A stretch of 64,000 bases of DNA from a virus (taxonomy: Duplodnaviria > Caudoviricetes), in IMG/VR virus record IMGVR_UViG_3300035208_003026, positions 128,001 to 192,000 of that record, one strand, 5' to 3'. Shown here in pieces: positions 21-21,337 of the stretch; within the stretch, counting starts at the first letter, position 1, and every line of letters begins with the position of its first letter. The translations under genes and the position numbers were made by a program. Under the pieces are notes generated by a model. The model made no database searches and had not been told where the DNA came from. It worked only from the letters and a program-made list of their open reading frames with translations.

Positions 21-3000
21 ATGTCTTTAGGATCTGAGTTGAATGCTATTGCTTCAAACTATGGAGCAACTCGTAAACAGGGTTCAAGAGCATCCGGCGT
101 AGCTCTTCTTACATTTAATGAAATTGAATCTGATATTCCTATCAACAAAGGTAGTGTTGTCGTTGCTTCTAACGGTGCATCTTTTACAGTTAATACATCT
201 CTAACTGTAGGTGTAGCTAATAAAAACACCTATAGAGCAACTGCTCAAAAGTATAGGGGTGCTTTAGATTTCGTAGGTATTGATGATCAATACGCTGTAG
301 AAGTATCTGTTAATGCAACTTCAACAGGTTCTGGTGGAAACATTTCCCGTTACAGTCTTACTTCAACAACTATTGCTGGAGTTTCTAGAGTAACAAATCC
401 GGCATCATTTGCTGGTGGTTCTCCAGCTGAAACAGACTCAGCATTTAAACGTAGAGTTTTAGGTATTTTCAGTGGAGCCAATACCGGTACTGAAACTGGA
501 TACCGTAATGTTGTTATGTCAGATCCTGATGTGGTTGATGCTATAGTTGTTGGACCTGGCGATCCTTTGATGACTCGTGATGGAACTCAAGTCTATGTAG
601 CTGAGGACAGAACTCGAACGATTACATCTGAGGGTACTGGTGGAAAAGTTGATATTTACGCCTATGGTTTTCGTCTTGCTGAAATTTTAGACTCTTTCAT
701 TTACTATGATAAGAGCAATAGAGATGATCCAACAGATATTGTAAATGACTATGTGCTTGGACAAATTGATGGTGATGAAAACAAGCTTGTAGTTACCAAG
801 AGAAAAGAGAATTTAGAAAACCAAGAATTGCCAAATCAGCCAGTTACAAATATTCTTGAGGTTTCTGGATCCTCTAGTGGTAGCCATTTCATTGAAAAGA
901 GCACAGATGACCTTGGTAGAGTTTCTGGCAATTATGAACTCGTATATGATGATGGAGTTTATGCTGGTTCACCTTGGGGCTTTGATCGCCTTCGTTGGGT
1001 AGATGATAGAGTTCGTGATCTTCCAGAAGATTTAACTAAAGGAAAATTTAACTCACAGGATTCAACCGGATTCTCTGATGTAACAAAGATTGGTGCAATT
1101 AAGCAAAATATTCAGGTTGTTAATGAGAACTCCAGGGTTAGCTCTTCTGATCGTTCTAGCATCTACCTATCTCATTATCCGGTTACTGCAGTAAGTCGTA
1201 TTTTTAACCAAACAACTGGTGAGCGATACATTATATCATCACAGAACCCAGATGGTGGTACTCAAAACACAACTGGTAGAATTACAATCACAGGATCCAC
1301 TCTTCCTGCTGTTAGTGATATTTTACAAGTAGATTACATTTGGTTGTTTGATTACGATCCTTATTGGGATTTTGATAATCGTGTCAATTCTGATAACATC
1401 CGAGATGTTGTTGATTCTATTGACTGGGGATATTCAAACGATGTTCGTCGTGAAGAAGTTATAGTTCAAGGAACTGGAACTCAACAACGTACTATTGAAG
1501 TTACTCATCCAGTTAATGCTGTAGTCTCTGTAAACACGTTTAAAGAAGATACAGATATAGAAGTTACTTTAGTTAGTAACAGAATAGCAATAGTTGCGTC
1601 TACACAGATTGTTAATGTTATATCTGTAGTAGATACAACATCTGGAGCTGAATACTACAATACAGGCCGAGATGATGGTTCTTTTAGTGGTGCTACAATT
1701 TATCTACCAACTGATACATCAGCTGAGGTTGGTGATATTGTAAACGTTAGATACAATGTTGAGGATAAGTTTACAACCAGTGGCGTAAGCGGATCTTTTA
1801 GTACTAACGTTATTACCCTTCCAGCCCAAACTAATATTGGTGATGGATACATTGTAGAAGTAAATTATTTGGCAGATATTCGTCAATTAGTTCCTGCTAC
1901 CACTTTGGCGAATTTCCCAATTTATCGAAATGCAAATGGTTTTCAGAATGCTGATTCCACACTTTTTGGTACACAGCCAACAACTCATATCTATTATCCG
2001 GTAATATCAATTGTTCCAGATCTAACCCCTCCAATCCAGAGAAACCTAAGGCGCGCACCTTCTCGTTTAAAAATGACGATTGCTGGTACAATATCTCCAG
2101 GTGTTTTGACAGTTTCTGGAACTTCTATCACTGGAATCTTTGATGGTGTATTTACTGCAACAGCTAATGGACAAGTTCATGATTTGTCATCATTAATTCG
2201 TAAGGCTCTTAAACTTACAAGTAATCAATCAATTCCAAATAATGTTGGAATAATATCATTAATTGCATTTGATAAGGTTCAAGCACAAGGTCAAGAAGTA
2301 ATTGCTGTAGAGCAACAATATGATGTATTTGGATATGAGATTTTAAATAACAATTTCTCAAAAGAAGAGGCTCTTGAAAATACATCACTTACAAGAACCC
2401 AGATAAAGATTCCAAAGACAATAACAAACGAAGATAATCTTCCAGTAATTGGAGAGAAGTTTAGAGTAACATTTTATGTCGGAACAACTGATGATTCTGA
2501 AAATGTATCATTCAGTAAAAGTGGTACTTTATATACTCAGAAAACATTTGCGTTTGTTGATATAGTTTCAATTTCAAGCGGTTTTACTTCAGGATCTTCT
2601 CAATCAGCAACTTTAACAATAGCTCCTCAAAATCAACCAACACAGGGTTCCAGATACACATCATATTATGATTATCTTGCTCCAAAGCAGAACGAGAGAA
2701 TCACGATTAGATATAATAAGAATCAAGTGATTAGTGATAATACATTTTCAATTGAAAGAACTAGACCAATCGGATCTGATGTTTTGGTAAAATCAGCAAT
2801 TCCAATTAGAATAAATATAACATTAGCTATAGTTGTAGAGAAGGGATATGAAACTTCTAGTTCTGTAGTTGCCCAAAATGTACAAGATGCAGTTACTCAA
2901 TCTCTTAATGCAGCTAAGCTTGGCACAACAATTGACGAATCAGATTCATTGATTATAGCTGGAGCAATTGCTGGCGTTGGTCGTGTACGTTCAACTCATT

Positions 3001-3101
3001 TCAACCGTGATGGTGAAGTTGGCCGTGTTCTCAGTATTGAGGCACAAAAAAATGAATACATCATTGCAAATGATGTCGTTGTTATAGTCGAAGAGCGATA
3101 A
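21..3101 (+). CDS. Baseplate J/gp6-like wedge protein (probably 5'-truncated by the window)
   Basis: Motifs typical of baseplate J (G..GNI....T..IAGV..VTNP..F.GG..AETD..F..R...GT..GY) and a J-like C-terminus (VQDAV...LN...LG...I.GV..V). The frame is open back to the window start. Confidence 0.75.
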   Translation: MSLGSELNAIASNYGATRKQGSRASGVALLTFNEIESDIPINKGSVVVASNGASFTVNTSLTVGVANKNTYRATAQKYRGALDFVGIDDQYAVEVSVNATSTGSGGNISRYSLTSTTIAGVSRVTNPASFAGGSPAETDSAFKRRVLGIFSGANTGTETGYRNVVMSDPDVVDAIVVGPGDPLMTRDGTQVYVAEDRTRTITSEGTGGKVDIYAYGFRLAEILDSFIYYDKSNRDDPTDIVNDYVLGQIDGDENKLVVTKRKENLENQELPNQPVTNILEVSGSSSGSHFIEKSTDDLGRVSGNYELVYDDGVYAGSPWGFDRLRWVDDRVRDLPEDLTKGKFNSQDSTGFSDVTKIGAIKQNIQVVNENSRVSSSDRSSIYLSHYPVTAVSRIFNQTTGERYIISSQNPDGGTQNTTGRITITGSTLPAVSDILQVDYIWLFDYDPYWDFDNRVNSDNIRDVVDSIDWGYSNDVRREEVIVQGTGTQQRTIEVTHPVNAVVSVNTFKEDTDIEVTLVSNRIAIVASTQIVNVISVVDTTSGAEYYNTGRDDGSFSGATIYLPTDTSAEVGDIVNVRYNVEDKFTTSGVSGSFSTNVITLPAQTNIGDGYIVEVNYLADIRQLVPATTLANFPIYRNANGFQNADSTLFGTQPTTHIYYPVISIVPDLTPPIQRNLRRAPSRLKMTIAGTISPGVLTVSGTSITGIFDGVFTATANGQVHDLSSLIRKALKLTSNQSIPNNVGIISLIAFDKVQAQGQEVIAVEQQYDVFGYEILNNNFSKEEALENTSLTRTQIKIPKTITNEDNLPVIGEKFRVTFYVGTTDDSENVSFSKSGTLYTQKTFAFVDIVSISSGFTSGSSQSATLTIAPQNQPTQGSRYTSYYDYLAPKQNERITIRYNKNQVISDNTFSIERTRPIGSDVLVKSAIPIRINITLAIVVEKGYETSSSVVAQNVQDAVTQSLNAAKLGTTIDESDSLIIAGAIAGVGRVRSTHFNRDGEVGRVLSIEAQKNEYIIANDVVVIVEER

Positions 3102-6100
3102 TGGCAAACCTTAGAATCCTAAATATAAATGCATCAGATTCCAGGACAATCAAGGTAAGATTTTCAGCTCCGTTGGCTGAAGATATTGGTAAGTCCAATA
3201 TTTTAATTGAATCCGAGATTAATAATGTTCCGGATGTCGAGGTATTAAATGTTTTTATTAGAGATGAAATTCTTGAAATTGAAACACTACCACACACACC
3301 ATTTGCAAGATACAAAGTAACATTCAGATCCACAAATGCTGTAAAGTTCCGCAGCTATGATGAGCATCAATTTTTAATTGAAGATGATCGTTCAAATGTT
3401 GTTAAAGTTCTCGGAGCTGAAAATGATTACAACCCAACTAGAGATTTGTTTGTAAGTTATCTAGGTGGCCCAAACTCTGTTTACAATTTGTCTCGTGAAA
3501 CAGTTATCAGAACCATTCTAAATCAGGTTTCTGATATGCTTAACAAGGCTAAGGCAGATGTTCGTCAGGCTAAAACTGCAAACTATCTTGAAGTTGAAAT
3601 AAAGGATGAACGTAAAACTCGTCGATATGGTCCTTGGGATCGTCTTCTTCAAGAAGGTGCGTTTGAAGTTACTCGGGTTGGCTTAACACCTACGAACGAA
3701 ACACTTGATGGAGTTATTCCATTTGATTACTTTCCAAAAGAGCCAATTACTCTTCAAAGAGAAGTTGTAACAGATGAGGTTCTTGTTCTTGGATATGGAT
3801 CTGGTACTTACAATGATATTACTCTAACACTTAAAAAAAAGCCTGTGACCAAAGTTACAAGTATTCAAATTAAGTATGAGAATGGTAATGTTTGGACATA
3901 CAACATTGAATCATTAGGATATAGGATCAATGATCCTAAGTATGATCCATATGGTCGTCGTTTAGTTACTCTAAGCAATAATCAGATTAAATTAAACGAG
4001 GATATTAAAGAGGATTCAAGTTTTGTATTGCCTGGTGGTACTGATACTATAATTGTATCATATGAATACAAATCACTTGGTAGAGTTATTGCAACTAATA
4101 GTGTAGAGGTTATTGAAGTTGTGCAGCAAATTCGTGAACCAGCTCCTGCTCTAACAACGATGTTCACTGTAAAAAATGCACCAATAGTTACCTCAACTGA
4201 TGGTACTCCAAGTTCCGGTGGTATTATATTTTACGATCCTTATTCAGTAACACCATTTCGTAATACTCCATCAGCATTCGTTAACGAGATTCCATTCAGA
4301 GAGGGTGGCCTTCCAAGTCGTCCTGGTGACTATTCAGTAGATTATGAAACTGGACGTGTTTTTGTTTATGGAGCAGTAGATAATGATGGTACGGGATATT
4401 TACCACCAACCATGACCTACTATTACAGAAAGACATATGTTCTAAACCTTGACTACACTTATGTTCCAGAATTTAGAGACCTTGTAGCGTCTCCATTGCG
4501 AGAACTTATTGGAAAGACTGCAAAGATTAACTACAAGTATGAACAAACCCTTGTACCTGATATTGATTACAAAGCAAATGTCCATGTGGAAACTCGTGAT
4601 GAAAGAATACTTAACAGACTAGCATCAATTGATTCAATATACACAGAGAACTCTCCAATCACAGATGTTTTCAAAATCTTTAACGAGACTACTGGTGAGA
4701 TTTATACTGTTAGAAGGTTTAATGAACATAGGATTTGGTTTGATTACAGAACTGCACCAAACATCAGTGAACCAAAAAGAGAGCGATGTTCATTCACTGC
4801 TGTGCTAAATGAACCTCTCATTCTTGAGAGTGAATTTATCAATATTAGTGGTATTCGTGTTTTGAAGTTTCAGCTTCAAAATGAAAACATAATAGCCGGC
4901 ACTGAGGATGTAATAGGATCAAGCTTCAATTCTAGCGTTTCATTTAGTCAAACGGATATTTTTGACAAAGAGTTATATTATGATGCTCAGGAATTAAGTG
5001 AAACAACAAATACCAACAGATTGCTTGTTGGACAATATCAAATAAACTATCGTAATGGTATTGTTTATGTTGGTGTTATACCTACTCAGACTTTGAATGT
5101 TGGTACGGTATCTTACAGGAAACCGGTCATAAATCCTGAACATTCTCATATTATTGCTGTATCTAAGGTTTATTCATCTATAAATGCAAACTTTGGTACT
5201 AACAAAGAGATCAACTATGAATCGTTTGACGAGGGAGAGATTGTACCAGTACCAACTCTACTTGATTTCTCTGATGAAAGATTCATTGCAGAAGATGTTA
5301 CAGATCCATTTATTTATAACAATGGAACAATAACCGTAAACGATGATATCAAGATTGTTCGTGGTATTTACGATGCATTTGATTTAAACAATAATATAGA
5401 CCCAACAAACTTTGCAGAAACAGCTACCTGGGATGCTAATATTATCACTCTGGATGATACTGGTATTTTCAAAAATGTTCGAACTGTAGTTGGTACTGGA
5501 CTTATTGTTACAGTACCGTTCATATCTCCTGGTATTGAGCTAAAAACCGTACAAAGCGTTGTTAGAGTTTCAGATAGACAACAATTACTTGATGGATATC
5601 AGACAGTTTCTGGTAATGTGATAACAATATCTCCAACTTCAGGAGCTAATGTTGGTGATATTATAGATGTTGTCTATACGGTTGTACTTAATGGTTCTTC
5701 AACTCCTATAATTGACTATAATAGAGGTGATTTATTTATAGATTACACATGTCTTGTTGATGAGATTATTATTTCGTACGAGTGGGGTGATAACGTAATT
5801 GACTTCAGAGAAAGTAATGTACTTGATGAGAATGACAATTATTACGTTACATATCTAATCGGTGCTCTTAGAACATCGCTGTTGGAAAATTTTGGTTCTT
5901 TGGTAAGAGTTCCAGAGCTTCAGGTCTTTGATGATGAATTAGATCGTGAAACATATCGTGATTTGATTCAAGGAGCTTTACAGACATTTACACAAGGACC
6001 AACAATTCCAGCTATAAAACAGCTGATTGCTCAGGTAACTCAAATAGATCCAAGGATTCGAGAGGTTACTTGGTGGTCTCTTGGCGTAAGCTATCTTGAA

Positions 6101-9100
6101 AAACTTGATTGTACAGTACTAGGCTCTCCATATCTCACATCAGGATGCTACGATCAGGGTATAGCTATTAAAGAAAGAGGCGATGGTGTTACTCTTCCAA
6201 TCTCAAACAACTTAAGATTGGAGGAAGGAACACTAGAAATGTGTGTCATTCCTGAGTGGAATGGTATTGACAATGATGCAACGTTATCTTTCTACTTAGA
6301 AAAAGATGGTTATGCTCTTGAATCTGATCAGATTTACATTGGTACAACGTCTTTCCATCCAGAAATTGATAAATATGGTCGCTTTACAGTTAATCGAACT
6401 GATAGTAAGGGCCCAGAAGGTGTTCCGGCTCTAATCTTTACAAAGACTGGCGCGTTTATCTATTACGATCCTGATAATAAACAATGGAAAATTCTAGCAA
6501 AGGAGGTTCCAGGCGTTAGTGGATCTGTTTACAAGGGCAATATTAGGACTACCGGTGATTTTTATGATGTGAAATTCATCCCATCTCTTGGAGAAATCTC
6601 AGATGTACTAAGATCAGATCTTGAAAATATCGATTTTGAGTTCTATCTCGATGGATATGATAGCTCTTCGCCAGATGGATACTCTCCTGGCGATGGTTAC
6701 AGCATTGTTCCTGGATATTCTTTTGATGGTATTCAGTTCATGAGTGATGATCGTCACTATTTCTTTGACTTTGGGCTTAATGAAAACGAGAATAGATTTT
6801 CTATCTACAAAGATGGTCGTGGATATCTTGTATTTGAAGTCTGGGATATGGGTGGTTTAGGTAAATTTAACCCAGAGAGACGTTCTGTTTATCAAGTTTC
6901 CGCAGATATTCAAAACTGGCAGGCTGGTAGAAAGCATCATATTGCAACGTCATGGGTTTTAAACTCAACTGACAACCGCGATGAGATGCATTTGTACATT
7001 GATGGATTCGAAACACCGAATCTAGCTCGTTATGGTAACGTTCCAGCAATAGCTAGCACAGAAAGATTCAGAACTATAGTACCTGAAGAGGTTGTTGGAA
7101 CTATTACAAGTAAATCGATAGCTGGAAATGACCTCATAACAAATCAAGGGTCTGCAACTGTACGTTCCGAAACTATAAATTTCCAGGCCCAGGGTATTGT
7201 TATTGGCAATACTATCGAAATTCTTGAACAGAACTTCGTAACATACACCATTGTTGATGTTTTTGCTAATGAATTGACGCTTTCTTCTGTAATGCCAGCC
7301 ACTTTGGAAGATGCAAGGTTCTCCGTGAATCCTGTAGAGTTTGTTGTAGGTACAGAGATTGATGTTTACACAAACATTGGTGTATTTACAAAATCTGGAA
7401 GCGTTGAAACTGAGATTCCAGGTGTTAGAGCTGACATCCCGAGCTATTCTATTGAGAGAAACGCTCTAAATCAGAGAATTTTGAAAGTTCTTGGTAATCT
7501 GGATATTGGTGATACTGTTTTGATCAAGACTTTCGGTCTAAACCACAGACGTTGTAAGACGAATGTATTCCTTTGGAGCGAAAATTCGATTCTCAAGACC
7601 AATCTGCCGCCTCCAATCAACCTCGATGACGTTATTGTTCGTACAATTGCTCTTCCATTGATAGCAATTGGTCCAGATAACTCAACTTTGATAGGTGGAA
7701 CGTTTGTTGCGAATATAGATGGGTATACTCAGCCTTCAAATTCTGTTGAAGGAAGATATTTTGATATCAGAGTTACTGGAGATAACGTAGATTGGAGTAC
7801 TCCAGTCGAAGTTACACTAAACGGAGACTCTACTGGTGGTCCAACAGAAACAATTTTGTTCATTTCACCCGGAAAGAAAACAACAACATACAAATGGCGT
7901 ACTTTCAGCTCTATAGTTGTACAAGCAACACCACTTTCAATCGCTTATAATTCTACATCAGTTGAAATAAAAGATACATATTCAATTACAGAACCTGCGG
8001 GAAACAATTTGTACCCAGTTATCAGATATTCTTATAGAACATCTTCTGGTGGTTCTCTGCAAAGTGATGACGGTGGTACAATTGTAAGCAATTCTCTCGG
8101 ATATTTCCCTGCATCAGAAGTTGGTAACTTATTATCAATCACTTCTCCCGTTGGAGCAGCTGGATTGTATGAAATTGTTGAAAAAATTAACGATACAACT
8201 GTCAGATTAAATAGTGCTGTCGGAATTCCGTTCACAAACGGTTTTTATGAGTCATTCAAAGTAAATATTGGACGATCTGGCTTTGCAAATGGGTTTTTAT
8301 TTTTTGAAAGAGCTGGTTTTACGAATGAACCGTTCATTTTACCAGCCGGATACTATGAACTTGACTATGCAACTTATCTTAAGGTTCCATTTAAACCATT
8401 AACATCTGAAACCGGCATTATCGGCAACGACTTAACTCTTCAGAACCCTGCTAAGGCTGTAATTGACGAATTCCGTATTCTAAATCGTCAACTTACAGAT
8501 ACTCGTATCGGAGAGACGCTTGGAACCAACGAAGAATCGATTACAACTGGCGCTACCAAATTTGCACCATATGTTACGAACCAAGATACACTAGCATTAT
8601 TACATTTCGAGGAATTGCCACCTAAAAATGATTCATCCTTCTACAAATTCGCTAAAAAGGAGTACGTACAATCAGGTCAAGGTCCAAACTCTCGTTTTGG
8701 ACACTCAATTGTTATTCGTGACAAAGGTGTGGCTTTTGATAACCAGGGAAATCTGGATACATCGGGAGAAGGTTTAATTGAGTTCTGGATTAGTCCTCGT
8801 TTTGATACTTACAACGATCCTAACGTTCGTGTTTACTTCGATGCGGCTTCAAACGTCGTTGAAGAGGTAACTTCAATTACAAAAGGACGTGTAAACCTTT
8901 CTGGACGTGCAAGTAAGATAGTTTACGTTCGTCTAGCTGATGATACAAAACTTCAGGGAACCGAATACTTCAACGGTGGTAGTATTGATACCGATGGAAA
9001 AACAATTATCCTGAAGACTTTACTTCCGTTCCAAAATACGCCGGTTCATGTATCATACATACCATCTGGTGTAAATGGAGATCGCATAACTATAGCCAAG

Positions 9101-9784
9101 GATAAAGAGGGATACCTCAATCTGACGGTCAATGCTAGCGGTAAGGAATATCAGACCAGGCAGCAGATTTTCTGGCCAAGAGATACTTGGCACAGGGTTC
9201 GTGCATCCTTTAAATTCAATAGAAAGGATAACAAAGACGAACTCAGATTGTTCATTGATGGTGAAGAAAAGGGTGCTCTACTCTTTGGACAGGGAGATGC
9301 TCTATTTGGAACTGGTTTAATCTGGGGTCAATCTGCTCTGGGTGGAGAAATGAGTCAGAGCTATATTGCTGATATAAACTTTAAAGATACTGTTCAACAG
9401 TTTTCATTAGGTCAAGACTATGCTGGAAACTTTGGTGCTGAAGCAAGATTCGATAATCTAAAGCTATCTAACAAAGCCTATAATCCTCTAATGGTAGCTG
9501 GTCAGCCAGTAGATGTTTATTGGAGTACAAACAAGGAATACCTATACCCATCCATTGAGGATGCATATACAACACTACTATGGGATTTCGATCAAAACAT
9601 TGGAAAGACTGAGGATTTTGCAGTGATTAGAGATCCAGCTTATGGCATTTTCAACTTTGACATTGATATCATTGACTCTTTTGATATAGTTACAGGTGAT
9701 GAACGTGTCCGTATTGTGTTAGAAGCTTTAATAAATGCCTTAAAACCAGCCACCTCTAAAGTTGGAATCTACTACGTGAAGTGA
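3101..9784 (+). CDS. Giant baseplate/tail structural protein with a gpI/wedge-like segment and LamG (concanavalin-like) modules
   Basis: Directly follows baseplate J (TAATG overlap). GPTIPAIKQLIAQVT is a P2 gpI-like motif; EGTLEMCVIPEW, EGLIEFWISP, HHIATSW..MHLYIDG and WHRVRASF..LFIDG are LamG-like strands. It ends in ALKPATSKV, typical of wedge proteins. Confidence 0.6.
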   Translation: MANLRILNINASDSRTIKVRFSAPLAEDIGKSNILIESEINNVPDVEVLNVFIRDEILEIETLPHTPFARYKVTFRSTNAVKFRSYDEHQFLIEDDRSNVVKVLGAENDYNPTRDLFVSYLGGPNSVYNLSRETVIRTILNQVSDMLNKAKADVRQAKTANYLEVEIKDERKTRRYGPWDRLLQEGAFEVTRVGLTPTNETLDGVIPFDYFPKEPITLQREVVTDEVLVLGYGSGTYNDITLTLKKKPVTKVTSIQIKYENGNVWTYNIESLGYRINDPKYDPYGRRLVTLSNNQIKLNEDIKEDSSFVLPGGTDTIIVSYEYKSLGRVIATNSVEVIEVVQQIREPAPALTTMFTVKNAPIVTSTDGTPSSGGIIFYDPYSVTPFRNTPSAFVNEIPFREGGLPSRPGDYSVDYETGRVFVYGAVDNDGTGYLPPTMTYYYRKTYVLNLDYTYVPEFRDLVASPLRELIGKTAKINYKYEQTLVPDIDYKANVHVETRDERILNRLASIDSIYTENSPITDVFKIFNETTGEIYTVRRFNEHRIWFDYRTAPNISEPKRERCSFTAVLNEPLILESEFINISGIRVLKFQLQNENIIAGTEDVIGSSFNSSVSFSQTDIFDKELYYDAQELSETTNTNRLLVGQYQINYRNGIVYVGVIPTQTLNVGTVSYRKPVINPEHSHIIAVSKVYSSINANFGTNKEINYESFDEGEIVPVPTLLDFSDERFIAEDVTDPFIYNNGTITVNDDIKIVRGIYDAFDLNNNIDPTNFAETATWDANIITLDDTGIFKNVRTVVGTGLIVTVPFISPGIELKTVQSVVRVSDRQQLLDGYQTVSGNVITISPTSGANVGDIIDVVYTVVLNGSSTPIIDYNRGDLFIDYTCLVDEIIISYEWGDNVIDFRESNVLDENDNYYVTYLIGALRTSLLENFGSLVRVPELQVFDDELDRETYRDLIQGALQTFTQGPTIPAIKQLIAQVTQIDPRIREVTWWSLGVSYLEKLDCTVLGSPYLTSGCYDQGIAIKERGDGVTLPISNNLRLEEGTLEMCVIPEWNGIDNDATLSFYLEKDGYALESDQIYIGTTSFHPEIDKYGRFTVNRTDSKGPEGVPALIFTKTGAFIYYDPDNKQWKILAKEVPGVSGSVYKGNIRTTGDFYDVKFIPSLGEISDVLRSDLENIDFEFYLDGYDSSSPDGYSPGDGYSIVPGYSFDGIQFMSDDRHYFFDFGLNENENRFSIYKDGRGYLVFEVWDMGGLGKFNPERRSVYQVSADIQNWQAGRKHHIATSWVLNSTDNRDEMHLYIDGFETPNLARYGNVPAIASTERFRTIVPEEVVGTITSKSIAGNDLITNQGSATVRSETINFQAQGIVIGNTIEILEQNFVTYTIVDVFANELTLSSVMPATLEDARFSVNPVEFVVGTEIDVYTNIGVFTKSGSVETEIPGVRADIPSYSIERNALNQRILKVLGNLDIGDTVLIKTFGLNHRRCKTNVFLWSENSILKTNLPPPINLDDVIVRTIALPLIAIGPDNSTLIGGTFVANIDGYTQPSNSVEGRYFDIRVTGDNVDWSTPVEVTLNGDSTGGPTETILFISPGKKTTTYKWRTFSSIVVQATPLSIAYNSTSVEIKDTYSITEPAGNNLYPVIRYSYRTSSGGSLQSDDGGTIVSNSLGYFPASEVGNLLSITSPVGAAGLYEIVEKINDTTVRLNSAVGIPFTNGFYESFKVNIGRSGFANGFLFFERAGFTNEPFILPAGYYELDYATYLKVPFKPLTSETGIIGNDLTLQNPAKAVIDEFRILNRQLTDTRIGETLGTNEESITTGATKFAPYVTNQDTLALLHFEELPPKNDSSFYKFAKKEYVQSGQGPNSRFGHSIVIRDKGVAFDNQGNLDTSGEGLIEFWISPRFDTYNDPNVRVYFDAASNVVEEVTSITKGRVNLSGRASKIVYVRLADDTKLQGTEYFNGGSIDTDGKTIILKTLLPFQNTPVHVSYIPSGVNGDRITIAKDKEGYLNLTVNASGKEYQTRQQIFWPRDTWHRVRASFKFNRKDNKDELRLFIDGEEKGALLFGQGDALFGTGLIWGQSALGGEMSQSYIADINFKDTVQQFSLGQDYAGNFGAEARFDNLKLSNKAYNPLMVAGQPVDVYWSTNKEYLYPSIEDAYTTLLWDFDQNIGKTEDFAVIRDPAYGIFNFDIDIIDSFDIVTGDERVRIVLEALINALKPATSKVGIYYVK

Positions 9785-9788
9785 AACT

Positions 9789-9875
9789 ATGACTAAACCA
9801 AAAGATGTTAATTTTATATTCCAAAAACATCTAACACAAACTATAGCTGATTTTTTAGGCATTAGTCAGTTATAG
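9789..9875 (+). pseudogene. 28-aa micro-ORF / helix-turn-helix relic
   Basis: Translates MTKPKDVNFIFQKHLTQTIADFLGISQL*; TQTIADFLGISQ resembles an HTH motif. It overlaps an imperfect inverted repeat (9841-9875). Confidence 0.3.
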
Positions 9876-9910
9876 ATAAATAGAATCATTAATGATAATA
9901 GGAGAATGCT

Positions 9911-12900
9911 GTGACCGTTCGCAAATCAGTTTCTTATCTCGAAAATCGTTGGTATGATGGTCAAAGAGTTGATCAGATCGATATGAATATTGAACAAAAT
10001 CGAAACGTCAGTTATGACTCTTCGATCGTTCAAAATCATTTCGGTTCTGGTGTTGTACCGCTTTCTCCTGTTCAAAAAGTTCTTTTTGATACAGAGAATC
10101 TGTTCCCAGATCAGGTTGCACTTATTGCATCTAATGATTTTGACGGAACTGGTTTACGACCATTAGAACAACCAACGGATAATTCTCTTGGAAACCAACT
10201 TGAAGTTGAACTAACAGACTCTAATCCAGAGATTTACCCATGGCATTGGCAATCAACTGCAATGGGCCGTCTTTGTACTAAAGTGTTAGTTATCGGTTTA
10301 GATTTCCAAGGAAACCTACAGTATGATAGGTTTTACTTCTACAAGAAAGAAAAACAGGTCACAAAAAAACACTATTCAAAAATACTTACAGTATTCTTTA
10401 ATGACTTTTTTGGTAATAATAACTGTTCTAGAAAGCTTGGTGGTCGTGTAATAATAAGAGAAACATCAAGCTTTCAGCTATCTCGTGATCCTGTGATGAT
10501 TGAACAGGACGTACAACCAAACCTTTTCTTCCGTGACTTTAAAGTTTCAAACACATCAGTTGGGGCGAACCCAACAGCTACTTTATACCAAACAATTCAA
10601 ACAGCTATAGGTACTGAATATAATGTTGATTCTTTATGGATCAATACTACAGTTAAGCGCGATTTTGAATTAGTAGCTGATGATATTACTACACGTCTTG
10701 GTGAGAAATTCTTAGCTAATAACAATAACATCCAAAAAATCTCATTGCTTTTAGGGGTTAGAAAAGACACTACTTCCGATACTGACAAAGAATACGACTG
10801 GAGTGGAGAACTTTTAGTTAGTGTTTATGAGCTGCAAAGTTCGATAAGTTGTCCAACCGATTTGGTCCCAGAGCTTGCTATCGAGTTCGAACCAAATCCA
10901 ATTCCATTAACCCAATTCAGTTTGGATCAGGATGATTTTAAGAGACTTGGCTATGTTCTTTCGGACGTTTTACAGCCCATTGATCTAATCTTCAGTAATA
11001 CGTTGCTTTCAGATACTATAAATCCAATAATCGTTCCTGGTAAATTCTATATTTTTACAATAGGTCGTGCTGGAGATGCTAGTACAGGAACTCTATTTAC
11101 AGGTATTGGAAATTCTCAGACTACAAATGATCGATTCACTATATTCACATCTGAATGGACAGATGTTCCTGAAGAGGATATGTGGTATCAGGTATGGTCA
11201 GATTCCGCAAAGGTAGCCGATGGATTCGCCTATGACGATGGCAATGGGATGGAAATCTCAAAAACCAATACAAATACATTGGGAGCTGTTGTTGACTACG
11301 TATTCGATCAAAAAGCATTTGCAGATGTTGGTCAAAACACATTAAATACAGCTGTGGTTAAAGCAGTTCTTGTACAGTCAGTACAGGAGCAAGATGAAAG
11401 AACTGGTAATCCAGTATATGCTCGTCAGAAGTTTGAACCGTCATTTAGTTTTGTAACTACTACAAACCTAGAGACTCTAAGAGAAACTTCTGAACCAGTT
11501 GTTATCGGTTGCGCTCGTGATACAAATCCAAAATCAGGAGAAGACATTAGCGGAACTCAACTTTTTCCAGGTCTTGCCAAGGGAAATGTATTTCATGTTC
11601 TTGCACCAAATTCCGACCTTATATCACAACAACTCATTGGCTCGGCTTTAATTCCGAATGATGAATGTCAAGCAAAGGAATACAAAATTGTATCTACAGT
11701 ATTATGCACTGATGGATATGGTGATATCAATGGTGATGGAATTGTAGATGATCTTGACATTTTTAGAGCTTCGGAACTTCTTGGAGAATCTTTACTTTTA
11801 TCATCAACTCAACTAAAAATACTTAATGGTGAAATTGATACTCTAGAAATTATCAGGGGAGACGTTGATGGTGATGGCTATATCACAGCTACAGATATAA
11901 ATCATATTACAGCGTATGTAGCAAAAACAAGAGCTAGTTTTGATATTGGAGATACATTCCAACGTTTGGAGATAATTGTCCAACGTCCAACTGGTAGGGC
12001 TGATGGTTATTATGACTGTGGTGATGGATACATTAGACTTGATGGATATTCTTTACAAAACATTGTAAGTGTATCAGATTTAACAGATAAAGAACTTGAA
12101 GTTTACGGATACAATGGATTTCCTGATGTTGAAGCTGAAGATCCTGCTTATCAGTTAGTTCCATTTGAGGCAATACCATTCAGAGTTCGTTCAAGTCTTT
12201 TCTGGGAAGATTATCTCCTTCAGTTCAAATCAAATGCCCGTGAAGTTCCTGTTACATTTACATCATCGACAACACCGGATAATTTATTAACATCTCTTGG
12301 TACTTGTGATGAATCTAATGATTCTATTTGTCAAGAAACGTTTACATTTGGAGCAAATGTATGTGACCCTGGTGTTAACGATTTTTATGTACCAAACAAT
12401 CTGATTATGGGTAACGGCCAGATACTTGATAGATATGGTAACTTCCATAAACAGGACATTGAACTTCACGTAATTACCATAGAAATTCCTGAAGTACCTC
12501 TTGGCCGTGGTGTTCTTGACGTATTCAACAAACTTGTTGTCAATCATGAAAATGGAAGAACCTCCGCAGGATTTACTGCAGCTAGATTCTCTGATTGTAC
12601 ATTTGTTGAGTCTGATGCTTTGGTAAAAAACCAAATTAGGTTTGGGCTGTCAATTGCATCTATTGCTCCAAGTCTAGATGGTTACAACTGGGATTTGGGA
12701 TACGGTGTCATCTCTGATGACTACCTGGCAGCATACATCGATCAGGAAGAAGGCATTCTATATTTCACGATGAAAGATGCTTTAAGTTCGGCTATTTACC
12801 CAGAGCTTAGACCAAAAATTCAGATTACAGCGTATCTAAAAAAGGCTGGTTGGAACAATACGCCATTAACAGTACCAAGAGATCAGGTAATTGGATTACT

Positions 12901-12925
12901 ATCAAGTAACGATCCGTATCCGTAA
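9911..12925 (+). CDS. Large virion structural protein with a dockerin-like duplicated Ca-binding loop
   Basis: GGAGA SD upstream of a GTG start. The N-terminus WYDGQRVDQIDMNIEQ is a baseplate-type start. Contains GDINGDGIVDDLD (11720) and GDVDGDGYITATD (11858). Confidence 0.55.
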   Translation: MTVRKSVSYLENRWYDGQRVDQIDMNIEQNRNVSYDSSIVQNHFGSGVVPLSPVQKVLFDTENLFPDQVALIASNDFDGTGLRPLEQPTDNSLGNQLEVELTDSNPEIYPWHWQSTAMGRLCTKVLVIGLDFQGNLQYDRFYFYKKEKQVTKKHYSKILTVFFNDFFGNNNCSRKLGGRVIIRETSSFQLSRDPVMIEQDVQPNLFFRDFKVSNTSVGANPTATLYQTIQTAIGTEYNVDSLWINTTVKRDFELVADDITTRLGEKFLANNNNIQKISLLLGVRKDTTSDTDKEYDWSGELLVSVYELQSSISCPTDLVPELAIEFEPNPIPLTQFSLDQDDFKRLGYVLSDVLQPIDLIFSNTLLSDTINPIIVPGKFYIFTIGRAGDASTGTLFTGIGNSQTTNDRFTIFTSEWTDVPEEDMWYQVWSDSAKVADGFAYDDGNGMEISKTNTNTLGAVVDYVFDQKAFADVGQNTLNTAVVKAVLVQSVQEQDERTGNPVYARQKFEPSFSFVTTTNLETLRETSEPVVIGCARDTNPKSGEDISGTQLFPGLAKGNVFHVLAPNSDLISQQLIGSALIPNDECQAKEYKIVSTVLCTDGYGDINGDGIVDDLDIFRASELLGESLLLSSTQLKILNGEIDTLEIIRGDVDGDGYITATDINHITAYVAKTRASFDIGDTFQRLEIIVQRPTGRADGYYDCGDGYIRLDGYSLQNIVSVSDLTDKELEVYGYNGFPDVEAEDPAYQLVPFEAIPFRVRSSLFWEDYLLQFKSNAREVPVTFTSSTTPDNLLTSLGTCDESNDSICQETFTFGANVCDPGVNDFYVPNNLIMGNGQILDRYGNFHKQDIELHVITIEIPEVPLGRGVLDVFNKLVVNHENGRTSAGFTAARFSDCTFVESDALVKNQIRFGLSIASIAPSLDGYNWDLGYGVISDDYLAAYIDQEEGILYFTMKDALSSAIYPELRPKIQITAYLKKAGWNNTPLTVPRDQVIGLLSSNDPYP

Positions 12926-12946: not shown

Positions 12947-13117
12947 ATGGGTAAGAAATACCGTCGCACCAAAGGAGAAGCTAGGCGTCAACTTTGTGGT
13001 TGTCTTCGTTTCGAAAATGAAATTATAAGAATTGCTGTCGAGAGAGCCAGAAAAGATATTCTAGATAAAGAAGATAGAAGAATTTTTGAGGAACTTTCAC
13101 TTAATGGAGTGGTATGA
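12947..13117 (+). CDS. Small basic hypothetical protein
   Basis: ATG at 12947; its stop overlaps the next start (ATGA). Confidence 0.5.
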   Translation: MGKKYRRTKGEARRQLCGCLRFENEIIRIAVERARKDILDKEDRRIFEELSLNGVV

Positions 13118-14268
13118 GAATTAAGATACAGCAATTTCTATTTGGTAAGTGCCATTCATGGTCAATTATTGGTCAGAATCTTGGGAGGGCACTTATCAAA
13201 ATGGGACATGATGTTGACTTCATTTCAACTGATGGATTTGAAGAGAGATATTGTCCACAAGATCTTAGACCTCATGTTAAGCTTTCTGGTATAAATGGCA
13301 ATGATCTAATTAAGGAAGTTCCAAAGCTTGGACAATATGATTGTCAGATTAGTTATACAGCACCTCATAATTGGCCACATTACCTGATGAATGGTACTAA
13401 GAATAGATTTGGTATCTGGAATTACGAGTACAATAATAAGAAGTTCTCTGATTCTTTCAGAGTGTTGCTTTCTGGGTTTGCAAAATACTACCGAGCTTGT
13501 GATTTAGTTCTTCCATCATCAGGCTTCAGCAAAGAAGTATTCTTGTCTATGGGTATTCCAGAGGAAAACATGAGAGTAATTCCTCACGGAATTAACCTAG
13601 AGGATTTTGCTGAGAAGAATCCTTGGAAGTTGAATACAAAGAAGACAAAGAAGATACTGTTAAATATTGCTCAGCCACATCGTCGTAAGGCATTACATTT
13701 AGCTCTCAAAGCTTTTGGAGAAGCATTTACCAAGAATGATGACGTTGTCTTGGTAGCGAAAGTCTTCAAGTCAAATAATTCAGGTAGTCAATTTGATGTG
13801 GACTTTAACGAAATCTATCGTCAATTTGAAAAGAAGTATCCTAATCACGCTGAGGTAGAACTTGTTCACAGTTACATTCCAAACATTGCCGATATCTATG
13901 CAGCTTGTGATGTAAACTTTTCTGCTACATATGCTGAGTGTTGGCATTTACCATCACTTGAAGCATTGGCCTCTGGATGTATCAATGTTGTTCCTCGTTA
14001 CGGTGGTCAGCTTGACTTCTGTAATGATTCGAACTCATTGTTAATTGATGGTTCAATTGTTAGAGCACCAAGAGATCATCAGTATTGGAATTTCAATCCA
14101 TATGCTGTTCATTACGAAATTAACGTAGATGATGCAGCAAGCAAACTACAATTTGCTGTCCAAAACTATAACTCTTTGGTAACTAATTTCCAGTCGAGTA
14201 TGTTAGAAACAGTTACAAAATATACATGGGAGAATTCTGCTAAATGTATTCTTGATCTTTGTAAATAG
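13114..14268 (+). CDS. Glycosyltransferase, GT4 (GT-B) family
   Basis: GHDV, VIPHGIN, RKALH, YAACDV...ECWHLPSLEALASG (E-x7-E motif), YTWENSA. Confidence 0.9.
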   Translation: MRIKIQQFLFGKCHSWSIIGQNLGRALIKMGHDVDFISTDGFEERYCPQDLRPHVKLSGINGNDLIKEVPKLGQYDCQISYTAPHNWPHYLMNGTKNRFGIWNYEYNNKKFSDSFRVLLSGFAKYYRACDLVLPSSGFSKEVFLSMGIPEENMRVIPHGINLEDFAEKNPWKLNTKKTKKILLNIAQPHRRKALHLALKAFGEAFTKNDDVVLVAKVFKSNNSGSQFDVDFNEIYRQFEKKYPNHAEVELVHSYIPNIADIYAACDVNFSATYAECWHLPSLEALASGCINVVPRYGGQLDFCNDSNSLLIDGSIVRAPRDHQYWNFNPYAVHYEINVDDAASKLQFAVQNYNSLVTNFQSSMLETVTKYTWENSAKCILDLCK

Positions 14269-14366: not shown

Positions 14367-14582
14367 ATGCCAATCCAGAATGAAAAAAATTTAGCTATTG
14401 TTATCCCAGTTTTCAACAATTGGTTATACACACAGAAGACTTTGAAATATCTTCAACATCTTCCAAACGATCATCTGGTTATTATAGTAGATAATGGTTC
14501 AGATGATCAAACAAAGAAGTTGATATCTATACCATGCCGCGAGGTTGCGGCGAAACAGATTTTGGAGCTTTGTGTAAAATGA
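14367..14582 (+). pseudogene. Truncated GT2 N-terminus fused to a GT4-like C-terminal tail (recombination scar)
   Basis: AIVIPVFNN...IIVDNGSDD is a GT2 start. The tail EVAAKQILELCVK matches the end of the upstream GT4 (ENSAKCILDLCK). Confidence 0.65.
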
Positions 14583-15280
14583 AAAAGTTATCTATAGCAA
14601 TTCCTGTATGGAACAATTGGAGATTCACCAAGAATGTGTTGCTATTTTTTCAGAAACATAATGCAGATTTTTTAGAAATTATTGTGGTTGATAATGGAAG
14701 CTCTGATGAAACAGAGTGTGAAATTAGAAAACTTTCCGAATCTATGGATAATCTTCTCTATATTAGAAATGATATGAATTTGGGATTTGCCGCGGCTGTA
14801 AATATAGCTTTTCGTGCAAGTAAAGGTAGAGTTGTTTTGTTTTTGAATAATGATATAATGTTTTCATGTAAAAATATTGAGTGGTTAGAGAGATTATCAG
14901 ATTCAATAGATGATAATTCTTTTGTTGGGCCAACTGGTGGTTTGATAGATGAACAATTTAATTTTGTGTATGAAACAAAAGATCCATTCAAAGAGATAAA
15001 TTATGTTTCAGGTTGGTTTTTATGTGCTAGCAGAAAGTTATTAACTAGTTTGTGTGATAAAGATTTTGGTCCGTTTGATGATAAAACATTCGTATCTTAT
15101 TTTGAAGATACTGATTTGAGTTTTAGAGCACGCGAGATTGGTGTTAGATTTGTTATTTGTAATGTTCCAGTTCATCATATTGGGAAACAAACATCTGTTA
15201 AAATTGGATTGTCTAAAATGTATGCTTCTTCTAGGAAAAAATTCATACAGAAATGGAATGGCAGATGGAAGAGAAAATAA
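14579..15280 (+). CDS. Glycosyltransferase, GT2 family
   Basis: SIAIPVWN, VVDNGSSD, NLGFAAAVN, FLNND, YFEDTDLSFR. Start moved to the ATG at 14579 (ATGA overlap). Confidence 0.9.
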   Translation: MKKLSIAIPVWNNWRFTKNVLLFFQKHNADFLEIIVVDNGSSDETECEIRKLSESMDNLLYIRNDMNLGFAAAVNIAFRASKGRVVLFLNNDIMFSCKNIEWLERLSDSIDDNSFVGPTGGLIDEQFNFVYETKDPFKEINYVSGWFLCASRKLLTSLCDKDFGPFDDKTFVSYFEDTDLSFRAREIGVRFVICNVPVHHIGKQTSVKIGLSKMYASSRKKFIQKWNGRWKRK

Positions 15281-15501: not shown

Positions 15502-16300
15502 ATGAGTAAGTTGTATATTTTAACATTGCATTGGAATAATGTTGTCAATCTAAAAAGATTACATGATTCTTTAATTAGATCTTTAAAAGATATTGATTAT
15601 GTTTGGTATATTAAAGATAACGGATCGGTGGATGGTTCTGAAGAATATATTAAATCGATATTGTCTGATAATATAAAATGTCATTTTACCAAACATAATA
15701 GACATTCATTTTCAGAGGGTATGAATATACTTTTTGAAAAGTGTAATCCTAATGACGAAGATTTAGTATTATTATTAAATAATGATTTGTGGTTTGATGA
15801 TGAGTTGTCAATTAAAAATATGATCAGTATTATTGATAATGATCTTGATGTTGGAGTTGTTGGAGCGAGATTGCTTTATCCAAATAATAATTTGCAACAT
15901 GCCGGTGTGGTTTTTTTGAAAAGATATTCATATCTTCCATTTCATTATAGACATAATGAAAAATCAACACCTAAAGATGAAAAAAATAAAGAGTTTCAAG
16001 CGGTAACTGCAGCTCTAGCATTAACAAGAGCAAAGTATTATAAGAACGTTTGTAGTACTAATAAAAGTGGTCGTCCAGGTTTGGACGAGATTTTTTTTTT
16101 TTTGGTGCTTTGAAGACATCGATGCTTGTTTATCGATTAAATATAAACAAGGAAAGAAGATAATGTATTGTGGCAAGACTAAAGTTTATCATGAAGAGAG
16201 TGTTTCTTTAAAAAAGAATCCTGTAAATAAAATGATGATGCCACATAATGTTAATATGTTTAAAAAGAAATGGAATGGAATATATAAGTTAGAAGATTAA
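15502..16300 (+). pseudogene. GT2 glycosyltransferase split by a frameshift in a T13 tract
   Basis: The N-part (KDNGSVDGS, LLNND, LQHAG, AVTAA, GLDE) and the C-part (WCFEDIDACL, VYHEES) are in different frames, joined at poly-T 16091-16103. Confidence 0.85.
16091..16103 (+). repeat. T13 homopolymer tract inside a GT2 gene
   Basis: 13 consecutive T. T12 or T9 would restore the frame. Confidence 0.95.
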
Positions 16301-16343: not shown

Positions 16344-17093
16344 ATGAATCATCACATTATCACATCATCCACCAAGGTGTATCTCCGCTTCAAAGAGAAA
16401 TATCCAGAAACTCAGTTGATGTCAACTGCGTTTGAGGGATTCTTGGAATTAGGTGCGGAAGTTGTGCCTTTTTATTGGATTGATGATATTGATGAGATGG
16501 AAGATCTTGGTCCGGATACTTTTGTGTGTGGATACATTGGTGATGTACACCGTAGTCTTCAAAAAATGGGTAAGTCCATTCCTGAACCGTTGGATTATCC
16601 AGAATCACTGCAAGAATTCTTGGGAAGAAAGATTTACAAATCAACGTTAGGTGAAGTTCGTCATGGCGTTGAAAAGGTATTTGTTAAACCTGTTGAACAG
16701 AAATTGTTCACTGGGTTTGTGTTCGACGGATCTTGGGCTTCAAGAAGACGTATAGTAACTATCGAGGACAGCACACCAGTTTGGGTTTCGGAATGTATTG
16801 AGATGGATTCTGAATACAGGTGCATCGTTCTGAACGGTGATATCATTGATGTGCGAAGATACAAAGGGGATTGGGCGCTAGCTCCCTTACGAGAAGTTGT
16901 TGAAAGAGCGGTGCAGTGTTTTGAACTTTCTGGTAAAGCGCCAGCATGCTATACTCTTGATTTTGCTGTGAATAATATAGGGACTGTTTTGGTCGAGGCT
17001 AATGATGGGTTTGCTTTTGGACATTATGGGATGTCTCCAGTAGCTTATGCAACCTGTTTGGCTGCTAGATTAATGCAGCTAGCTAGTGGTTAG
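16344..17093 (+). CDS. ATP-grasp domain protein (R2K/DUF4343-like)
   Basis: DYPESL, FVKP...KLFTG, SEYRC, YKGD, LDF...LVEANDGFAFGHYG. Confidence 0.8.
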   Translation: MNHHIITSSTKVYLRFKEKYPETQLMSTAFEGFLELGAEVVPFYWIDDIDEMEDLGPDTFVCGYIGDVHRSLQKMGKSIPEPLDYPESLQEFLGRKIYKSTLGEVRHGVEKVFVKPVEQKLFTGFVFDGSWASRRRIVTIEDSTPVWVSECIEMDSEYRCIVLNGDIIDVRRYKGDWALAPLREVVERAVQCFELSGKAPACYTLDFAVNNIGTVLVEANDGFAFGHYGMSPVAYATCLAARLMQLASG

Positions 17094-18045
17094 GCAATAT
17101 CGGTCTAAGTATTTCCCATTTTCTGCAGGTGTCCCATGGAAAACTGAACGTGGAAAGTACATTGTACCAGAGATTGATTCAGCAATTTGGCATAAGGTAA
17201 CCGGAGGCCGTGATATTATTATCACGGCCTTTGGTGGTTTGTTTGAATCTTTCTTTTCTCTATCTGTAGTAGAAGCTTTAAACTCTTTCGATTCTTCGCA
17301 TAAACTGTACTGGCTAGGTAATCCTAGTTACGAGTTCTTTGTGCGAGCGCAAGGGTTGAGTAAGGTCAGTAACATCAACCTTACTTCAGAGACTTTAAAG
17401 AGTTATCCAGTTCCGTTGTTCTTCGATCAGGATAACAATGCGTACATGAATGTTCTCAATAACTACCTTACCAGGACATCTTACTGGGGGAAATACCCGC
17501 AACAAGTTGATGCTCCAGTGGTAGAGCAGATATTCAGGAATGCAATGATTCCATGGCAAAATTATATTCCAGTAATGCGCAAAGCTGGTTCAGAGTTCTA
17601 TAACGAACTTGAAAAAGTAAATCATATTACATATCGATCAAAGATTGTAACTATTATACATAACATAAACAATGATGATACACTAAAATGGAACATACAC
17701 AATATTAAAGAATTTGCTCAATTAGCTGGTATAAATGGTTTGAAAGTTGTACTGTTTACTCATAATCCATTGATTTTCCATGGGACAAAAATGATAGTAC
17801 ATCAATATGATATTAGAAAGATAATTCAAGTACTTCAAAAATCTTGGATGGTATTATCAACAGATGTACATTGGTTGTTGATATCATTGATGATATCAGA
17901 TGCTAAAGTAATATCAAAATACATAGATGGACCATACGATTTGTTCAAAAATGCCGAGATTCTTCAGGTGCAGAATGATATATTTACAGACAAAAATTGG
18001 GTATCACCGATTGATGTTATTACTATTTGTGAAGGATTTTTATGA
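17086..18045 (+). CDS. Divergent GT9/heptosyltransferase-like GT-B protein
   Basis: IIITAFGGLFESFFSLSVVEAL resembles the GT9 N-terminus (GD...P...L); VLSTDVHWLLIS resembles GNDSGPMHLA. Confidence 0.45.
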   Translation: MVRQYRSKYFPFSAGVPWKTERGKYIVPEIDSAIWHKVTGGRDIIITAFGGLFESFFSLSVVEALNSFDSSHKLYWLGNPSYEFFVRAQGLSKVSNINLTSETLKSYPVPLFFDQDNNAYMNVLNNYLTRTSYWGKYPQQVDAPVVEQIFRNAMIPWQNYIPVMRKAGSEFYNELEKVNHITYRSKIVTIIHNINNDDTLKWNIHNIKEFAQLAGINGLKVVLFTHNPLIFHGTKMIVHQYDIRKIIQVLQKSWMVLSTDVHWLLISLMISDAKVISKYIDGPYDLFKNAEILQVQNDIFTDKNWVSPIDVITICEGFL

Positions 18046-18803
18046 CCGATACTACTCTTATGATGATTACTTATAATCGTCTAGACTTTACTTCAAAAAC
18101 TTTAATGGATTTGTTTGGTACAGACCCTGGTCGTAACTTCAACCTAGTTATTGTAGATAATGGATCTAGTGATGGAACGGTTGATGTCTTGGATACGATG
18201 GAAAAGGTAAAAGAGTTTAATGGTGAAGGTAGACTCAAAAAACTTGTTGTGGTTAAGCTTCCGCAGAATAAGGGTATCGCTGTTGGCCGGAATATAGCTT
18301 TGAAGAAAGCTGATGAGCTTGGTACCAAATGGTACTGTACAATTGATAATGATGTGAATATGCCAAATGGCTGGCTTCAAGAATGTGTTGAGATTCTTGA
18401 AGAAAATAAAGGATTCGGAATTGTTGGTGTAAATATGGAGGACACAATTTATCCAATGATTACAATGGGTTCGCATAAATTCCAAGAAAAACCTCAAGGG
18501 AATTTGGGAACGGCTTGCATGGTATTCCGCAAGCAGGTGCATCAGATGATTGGTTTCTTTACTACAGAGTACGGGATGTATGGGGAAGAGGATGCTGACT
18601 TTGGGATGAGGGCTAGAGTTGCTGGTTTTAAAATGGGGTATATTGAACGTATGGGAACTCATCTTGGGGCTGATGAGACTGAGGTTGGTGAGTATAGGGT
18701 TTTTAAAACAAAGCAACATGCAGACAATCTAGCATTATTTAAACAGAATTGTGCGCGATATTCTCAAAGAACAAAAGCACTTTTCATCCCATATAAGGAT
18801 TAA
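18042..18803 (+). CDS. Glycosyltransferase, GT2 family
   Basis: ITYNR, IVDNGSSDGT, NKGIAVGRN, IDND, YGEEDADFGMR. Confidence 0.9.
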   Translation: MTDTTLMMITYNRLDFTSKTLMDLFGTDPGRNFNLVIVDNGSSDGTVDVLDTMEKVKEFNGEGRLKKLVVVKLPQNKGIAVGRNIALKKADELGTKWYCTIDNDVNMPNGWLQECVEILEENKGFGIVGVNMEDTIYPMITMGSHKFQEKPQGNLGTACMVFRKQVHQMIGFFTTEYGMYGEEDADFGMRARVAGFKMGYIERMGTHLGADETEVGEYRVFKTKQHADNLALFKQNCARYSQRTKALFIPYKD

Positions 18804-21336: not shown

Positions 21337-21337
21337 C

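Follow-up and report, generated by a model that had tools for sequence, protein, structure and literature searches.

The 64,000-base stretch analysed here (the window) comprises bases 128001-192000 of a linear viral contig of 208,980 bases, and it combines large baseplate and tail proteins, in which the tripeptide Asp-Gly-Tyr (DGY) recurs, with a 16-kb island of glycosyltransferase (GT) and sugar-nucleotide genes. The contig is that of a myophage, with terminase, portal, prohead protease, capsid, sheath and baseplate genes; its completeness is estimated at 49%, and it represents roughly a fragment of a phage-G-like genome of about 430 kb, complete relatives measuring 430-480 kb. Judged from the sequences, the DGY signal, about ten times the chance frequency, is real, and it looks like a hitherto undescribed surface tag on the outer proteins of the virion.

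Within the window, DGY is found once in baseplate protein J (nucleotide start 1842), six times in a protein of 2227 amino acids (aa; 5591, 6305, 6650, 6674, 6692, 7718), six times in a 1004-aa protein (11711, 11873, 12002, 12023, 12041, 12677, with a cluster at 12002-12049), six times in a 1631-aa fibre-like protein (45594, 45726, 45816, 46566, 46767, 50010), and once in the helicase intein (31984). This recount agrees exactly with that of an initial annotation of the same DNA, which had also put the expected number at about 2; computed from each protein's own composition, the expectation for the four proteins is 1.53, compared to 19 observed (Poisson p ~1e-14). The non-structural proteins of the window hold 1 DGY against 2.2 expected. 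The whole contig contains 45 (10.1 expected), of which the morphogenesis block, defined by position alone, accounts for 32 (3.65 expected); if the fibre gene and one Fn3-type protein are added to the block, 39 stand against 4.2, and 6 against 5.9 are left for the rest of the contig. Both in the present contig and in the related genome G033, DGY ranks first of 8000 tripeptides for enrichment; in the present contig, DGF, DGW, NGY, EGY, DAY and the permutations of DGY are near baseline. Four of the fibre sites form two pairs that arose by internal duplication (residues 134/481 and 164/414), such that about 17 of the 19 sites are independent. The word is encoded by nine different 9-mers with a codon use close to background, and its DNA pattern occurs in the morphogenesis block 34 times on the coding strand vs 3 times on the opposite one. 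Given these free codons and this strand bias, the signal is not a DNA repeat, which bears out the earlier proposal that selection acts on the protein.

Concerning the proteins that carry it, the word recurs in about 15 unrelated ones: besides baseplate J, the 2227-aa and 1004-aa proteins and the fibres, these are the sheath, the protein preceding the sheath, the product of the gene preceding the capsid gene, and several large proteins of the head-tail interval. None occurs in the capsid, tube-like, tape-measure-like and gp25-like proteins of the contig. The initial annotation had confined the enrichment to virion proteins, which holds insofar as the non-structural proteins are at baseline; it has to be narrowed, however, as the capsid, tube and tape-measure-like proteins are at baseline, too, and the enrichment is limited to a subset of the virion proteins, probably the outward-facing ones, "outer" being assigned from gene identity. 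As this outer set was picked from the DGY-bearing proteins of the present genome, only other genomes and the position-defined block serve as tests. The outer sets of five other genomes hold 53, 46, 29, 22 and 21 DGY for expectations of 3.9, 2.1, 2.0, 2.0 and 1.9, respectively (11- to 22-fold), and the inner sets of the same genomes 0-1 for an expectation of about 1. By family, homologues of baseplate J contain 26 DGY (5.2 expected) and 36 homologues of the 2227-aa protein 230 (19.1 expected, 12-fold); the enrichment is 30-fold in the 1004-aa family, the DGY-richest of the clade, 10-fold in the sheath and 8-fold in a 1663-aa family. The tube-like family has none in 45 sequences, and a 1726-aa family has 1 where 7.4 are expected. 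The 1631-aa protein, presented earlier as a tail fibre, does carry its six DGY, and fibre-like relatives in G033 have 6 and 10; the label itself is an inferred one, since a SGNH/GDSL hydrolase is the only firm domain. The sheath sites (residues 179-205) adjoin the place of a large insertion in a sister group, which suggests that they lie on the outer surface. The sheath has no sequence match in the PDB, and no known fold was assigned with confidence by structure comparison, Foldseek matching the 1004-aa model only weakly to phi812 baseplate chains (E 3e-5).

The relatives of the present phage were sorted into groups 1, 2 and 3, and 15 of their genomes are near-complete (at least 90% complete). 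Near-identical DNA exists in groundwater and landfill metagenomes from three studies, with two runs as possible sources of the present contig. The clade is a widespread, uncultured one, its 1004-aa protein forming at least 320 clusters. The closest cultured relative is the Bacillus (Lysinibacillus) phage G (NC_023719), with a 53% identical capsid protein and a related C-terminus of the sheath; no homologue of the 2227-aa or 1004-aa protein was found in cultured phages. Among prokaryote genomes, GT4, the first gene of the sugar island, matches only two, one of them a 383-kb contig in a bin named Chitinophagales with the same phage gene order. This contig (L478), which has the same tail genes, 13 DGY and a GT island, is probably a phage of the present clade binned with a bacterium. 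Since the bin names Chitinophagales, Pacearchaeota and Anaerovoracaceae conflict, no host is assigned; a complete trigger-factor gene (L065:18389-19705), common to G033 and G029, may help in tracing it.

The word is portable. Among 130 homologues of the 1004-aa protein, 981 DGY occupy 33 alignment positions, and among 37 homologues of the 2227-aa protein 235 occupy 55; by the number of distinct positions per expectation, DGY comes first of 3449 and of 4229 tripeptides, and parsimony requires 174 and 103 changes in the two alignments. As these reconstructions have it, DGY is repeatedly gained and lost, many sites being recent and some old, and it also arises within lineage-specific insertions and in unrelated folds. 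The tyrosine is the critical residue: where it is lost at DGY columns, Phe makes up 17% of the replacements vs 54% at other conserved Tyr columns (counts uncorrected for kinship), the substitutes being Val, Thr, Ile, Glu and Ser, and DGF makes up only 10 of about 155 variants with intact Asp-Gly. This suppression of Tyr-to-Phe changes points to the hydroxyl and not to ring packing. The flanks show no consensus except for Tyr at -4, which is due to tandem spacing, and scarce Pro at +1.

Mapping the sites onto an AlphaFold model of the 1004-aa protein (mean pLDDT 83.8), as the initial annotation had proposed, places all six in loops, turns or strand ends: one is at the end of a strand, one in the loop of an EF-hand, one in a hairpin, and the others are in further loops. 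The DGY at 11873 takes positions 5-7 of the dockerin/EF-hand loop, and another site precedes the first loop; the loop pattern DxDxDG is present at 1 of the 39 outer-protein DGY sites in the present genome and at 0-2 per genome. From the predicted secondary structure and the insertions, DGY would thus be a portable tag on solvent-exposed loops.

Five phages served as controls, namely T4, phage G (a 100-kb part that includes the head and tail genes), Tunturi_5, Rctr197k and HyRo; their genome-wide DGY enrichment is 0.9- to 2.1-fold (T4 2.1-fold, phage G 5 vs 4.6). The enrichment also survives the comparison with composition-matched phage proteins, the first check by which the initial annotation would have seen it refuted, 85 beta-rich control proteins (56 thousand aa) containing 13 DGY for 9.5 expected. 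Tyr follows 27-44% of the outer-protein Asp-Gly pairs in groups 1 and 2, compared to 4-9% in the controls. GT4 was not found in any of the five control phages, none of which is enriched in DGY either. Group 3 was tried as a tag-free control and rejected, tandem DGY arrays being found there; arrays with a 4-residue period run through the 2227-aa homologues L473, L477 and L472 and recall the GxxxG repeats of FliH-type proteins. What the sequences show is a strict, portable and Tyr-dependent word, shared by a particular subset of the virion proteins throughout a large clade.

Table 1. DGY-bearing proteins and sugar-related genes of the window
Feature	Position	Strand	Basis or remark
Baseplate J / wedge protein, 1088 aa	1..3101, begins 165 bases upstream of window	+	PF04865 E 2e-18, phrog_6
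2227-aa baseplate-associated protein, laminin-G domain, DGY cluster 6650-6700	3101..9784	+	PF13385, weak phrog_1160
1004-aa beta-rich protein, dockerin-type EF-hand pair (residues 603-670)	9911..12925	+	PF00404
GT4-type (GT-B) glycosyltransferase	13114..14268	+	PF13439/PF00534; without transmembrane segment
Truncated 71-aa duplicate of GT2a start, gene remnant	14367..14582	+	second match of GT2a profile
GT2a, rhamnosyltransferase-like GT2	14579..15280	+	PF00535; TIGR01556 below cut-off
GT2b, interrupted	15502..16300	+	T13 run at 16091-16103; 203 aa
Variable island part	16344..27863	+	differs between relatives; missing in group 2
RmlB-like dTDP-glucose 4,6-dehydratase	27871..28836	+	TIGR01181 E 6e-96, below equivalog cut-off
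1631-aa fibre/spike-like protein	45327..50222	+	SGNH/GDSL hydrolase = only firm domain
Divergent GT1-like glycosyltransferase, outside island	53700..54554	+	PF13528 E 1.6e-7; 25/26 homologues match

The island begins directly downstream of the 1004-aa gene and holds, in the window, GT4, three GT2 genes and sugar-nucleotide enzymes. Of the sugar transferases, GT4 alone occurs in each of the 15 near-complete genomes, 9 of which were recovered by searches that did not use GT4 as query; it is always the first gene of the island and in almost all loci directly follows the DGY-richest gene. GT2a is a common and dispensable gene and a candidate chain extender. The remnant that precedes it is decaying, a second strain having further 1- and 2-base deletions, and between GT4 and this remnant a stretch of 34-41 bases (14283-14323) breaks assemblies at double depth; with no second copy in the contig, the stretch must be common to other DNA in the samples. 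The T13 run that interrupts GT2b is the longest homopolymer of the contig, and relatives have no run there. Two sequencing runs read T13, and two others, from two studies, read T12, which gives a full 265-aa GT2b; this may reflect strand slippage that varies one step of glycan assembly, or simply decay of the gene, and DGY is in any case kept in the present strain without an intact GT2b. The variable part comprises an R2K ATP-grasp ligase, a GT9-like 319-aa protein, GT2c, a CgeB-like GT (PF13524), GDP-mannose dehydratase, a second epimerase/reductase, and 652-, 192- and 305-aa proteins of no recognised family. Within 23184-27863, two enzymes have roughly double their normal size, GDP-mannose dehydratase with 720 aa and the epimerase that follows it with 836 aa, and both likely carry insertions such as inteins. 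The RmlB-like dehydratase stays beside GT4 in minimal islands, and a tubulin/TubZ-like gene (28820-30232) ends the island in nearly all relatives. No membrane initiator, flippase, polymerase or exporter was recognised and no clear transmembrane protein seen in the island of this half genome.

The initial annotation had linked DGY to the whole island on account of its position. A sugar-enzyme locus does accompany the tag in every near-complete relative, but most of the island is dispensable and the adjacency is not general. In G002, some 80 kb separate the island from the tail genes, which hold 13 and 9 DGY, more than in the present phage. Two genomes that are 100% complete, G043 and G044, lack GT2 genes altogether, yet possess 21-22 DGY vs about 2 expected (11-fold); their island consists of GT4, a membrane-anchored protein and the RmlB-like enzyme, so that GT4 and the latter are all that is left of the sugar enzymes there, and each genome has one further GT-B gene elsewhere. 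Because this 11-fold enrichment persists, most of the 16 kb is not needed for it. The enrichment is 12.7-fold without and 17.7-fold with the GT2a/GT2b pair (p 0.005), a descriptive comparison that ignores kinship. The anchored protein between GT4 and the dehydratase (320-345 aa, with an N-terminal hydrophobic anchor; L040:15010-16023 and group 2 equivalents) is kept in the minimal island even after the loss of the GT2 pair.

Outside the island, the GT1-like gene is present in all 14 near-complete genomes of groups 1 and 2; it was not detected in the group 3 genome, which is 94% complete, nor was an orthologue in phage G. Its neighbourhood includes genes for an exonuclease and an FAD oxidoreductase. 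Phenols are typical acceptors of GT1 enzymes, which suits Tyr as acceptor. Two candidate readers of DGY were rejected, namely the GT2a/GT2b pair, since G043 and G044 keep the word without any GT2, and the GT9-like gene, which neither group 2 nor group 3 possesses. The list of candidates, initially about ten enzymes of the island, is down to two, GT4 and the GT1-like enzyme.

We consider that there is an even chance that DGY is the sequon of a Tyr O-glycosylation by a phage glycosyltransferase, with GT4 as the first and the GT1-like enzyme as the second candidate. A soluble enzyme would recognise the Asp-Gly turn and, within the cytoplasm of the host, attach the first sugar to the Tyr hydroxyl, using a nucleoside diphosphate (NDP) sugar and no lipid carrier. 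GT4 would be the best candidate for this priming step, with a dTDP-6-deoxy-sugar from the RmlB-like enzyme as possible donor, and the GT1-like enzyme the alternative. The variable GT2, GT9-like, CgeB-like and GDP-sugar enzymes might then lengthen and vary the chain, with one extension possibly switched on or off by the T12/T13 run in GT2b, and the outcome would be a variable glycan coat on the tail, the tag sitting on outer sheath, neck, baseplate-rim and fibre proteins. A more specific version, in which a self-contained cytoplasmic system combines a strict sequon, one soluble GT-B reader and a lineage-specific glycan varied by gene exchange and a homopolymer switch, is held more tentatively, at somewhat below even chances.

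Several observations weigh against glycosylation. No GT4 enzyme is known to glycosylate Tyr, and the N-terminal catalytic His that is usual in such enzymes is missing from the GT1-like protein. In the very DGY-rich genome G029, the GT4 gene is broken into two frames (291 and 94 aa; L049:17308-18434), which may be a real break or an assembly error. Group 3 possesses GT4, yet its DGY enrichment is only 3-5-fold and stems mostly from two proteins with tandem arrays repeating every 4 residues, in which DAY and EGY are tolerated as well. Several DGY sites are 80-92% conserved, as structural sites would be. No clade member examined is without the tag, and none is without GT4, such that their co-occurrence cannot prove a link and amounts to a single contrast with distant outgroups; GT4 may be merely a core gene. 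Moreover, GT clusters of jumbo phages have been interpreted as modifiers of the host surface (PMC7824862).

Alternatively, DGY might be a docking word for an accessory or decoration protein present in many copies or for an assembly chaperone, with the sugar island acting elsewhere, e.g., on the host surface. Portability, loop setting and the preference of Tyr over Phe would fit a binding pocket equally well, the tandem arrays of group 3 would suit avidity, and most of the island has been lost or moved with little effect on the enrichment. No candidate reader was found, however, three residues without flanking preference provide little binding energy, and the island has no export or polymerisation genes, with GT4 directly following the DGY-richest gene; we therefore regard docking as unlikely, at about one chance in five.

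Slightly less probable still is another covalent change of the Tyr (phosphate, sulphate, methyl, nucleotide or a cross-link), made by a host enzyme or an unrecognised phage enzyme. A signal at the Tyr hydroxyl is compatible with various adducts, and for one phage tail protein a methylation that depends on the host has been reported (PMC13445384). Groups 1-2 also share, within the head module, a conserved tyrosine/dual-specificity phosphatase (L067:3933-4976; contig 59933-60979), which keeps a phosphate in play; no matching kinase was found. The ATP-grasp ligase of the present island would be another conceivable source, but its gene was not seen in the islands of relatives. Searches in five complete genomes detected neither a Hanks kinase above cut-off nor Fic; BY-kinases, sulphotransferases and host enzymes lay outside these searches. 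A PIMT-family methyltransferase, the candidate installer of an isoaspartate or aspartimide at Asp-Gly, was likewise found in none of the five (controls detected in 14 of 14). A PARP-like gene exists at 55656-57119 and in 2 of 5 complete relatives. PARP was rejected as a reader since it is not conserved, and kinase, Fic and PIMT since they are absent from the five complete genomes.

That DGY is simply a turn with a structural or Ca-binding role, recurring in beta-rich tail proteins without any reader, is improbable, and as a general cause such a turn is largely refuted. Asp-Gly is a common turn pair, the high conservation of several sites would agree with such a role, and one window site lies within an EF-hand loop and another just before the first one. 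The Ca-binding turn named in the initial annotation nevertheless fails as a general explanation, the EF-hand pattern being limited to those 0-2 sites per genome; in addition, about one third of the outer-protein Asp-Gly pairs continue with Tyr (vs 4-9% in controls), DGF, NGY, EGY and DGW stay at baseline, and the word arises anew in unrelated folds, insertions included. The mild 2.1-fold genome-wide excess in T4 and the four duplicated fibre sites could be adduced for an origin by chance, by biased composition, by common descent of a few sites or by a repeat in the DNA, but these readings are refuted by the first rank among 8000 tripeptides in the present genome and G033 and by dozens of independent, strand- and frame-bound positions with free codons, and have next to no probability left.

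Two side observations concern the contig around the capsid gene. A LAGLIDADG endonuclease gene (L068:2138-3931; contig 78138-79934) splits it into a 76-aa start and a 261-aa remainder, which suggests an intron. The 2453-aa protein encoded 3' of it (L068:4456-11814; contig 80456-87817), of which the relatives' version has about 530-670 aa, contains repeated DQI/NTD words that suggest a repeat expansion in the present genome.

No description of a DGY motif or of such a surface code was found in the literature on phages. A fixed tripeptide that repeatedly arises on the outside of a large virion would constitute a surface code, whichever its reader; if it is a sequon, DGY names the substrate and a short list of enzymes. 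Should glycosylation be confirmed, the glycosylation of virions would reach from small mycobacteriophages to a widespread uncultured clade, and Tyr would join the acceptors that are addressed through a sequon; no earlier description of such a Tyr O-glycosylation was found. The system would also provide a minimal, portable three-residue glycosylation tag and a soluble enzyme for glyco-engineering.

The proposed system is similar in some respects to the O-glycosylation of virions by phage-encoded glycosyltransferases in mycobacteriophages such as Che8 (Freeman et al. 2023, PMID 37329881, as cited in PMC11256854 and PMC13445384), with which it would share soluble phage GTs acting inside the host cell and structural proteins as proposed acceptors. 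There are also differences: in Che8 the modification has been shown and the capsid protein is reported as glycosylated, whereas the present system is known from sequence alone and the tag is situated on the outer tail and baseplate, the capsid protein having no DGY, though it may have other attachment sites. No sequon was found described for Che8-type glycosylation, whereas the present word is strict and portable and includes a Tyr. The S-layer proteins of Paenibacillus alvei (SpaA) and Thermoanaerobacter are O-glycosylated at Tyr (PMC2943079); common features are several sites per surface protein and rhamnose-type pathways nearby, and the Tyr hydroxyl as acceptor, to which the suppressed Tyr-to-Phe exchange points only indirectly, would be a further one. 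The analogy drawn in the initial annotation goes no further, since the S-layer pathway uses lipid carriers, a WbaP-type initiator, ATP-binding cassette (ABC) export and a membrane oligosaccharyltransferase acting during secretion, at sites of variable sequence without a sequon (PMC2943079). By contrast, Pfam recognises no WbaP-type initiator, ABC exporter or oligosaccharyltransferase in the present island, and the site is a fixed tripeptide. Phage G, in turn, has DGY at baseline and neither a GT4 or GT1-like orthologue nor homologues of the 2227-aa and 1004-aa proteins. With the dockerin type I/EF-hand loop (PF00404), the likeness is confined to one site of the 1004-aa protein, which takes the canonical loop position. 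The sugar clusters of jumbo phages (Iyer et al. 2021, PMC7824862) are similar to the island in being polymorphic and in combining several GT families with sugar-nucleotide enzymes; whereas those clusters are sporadic, in the present clade one GT4 is a core gene throughout and is situated beside the tail genes.

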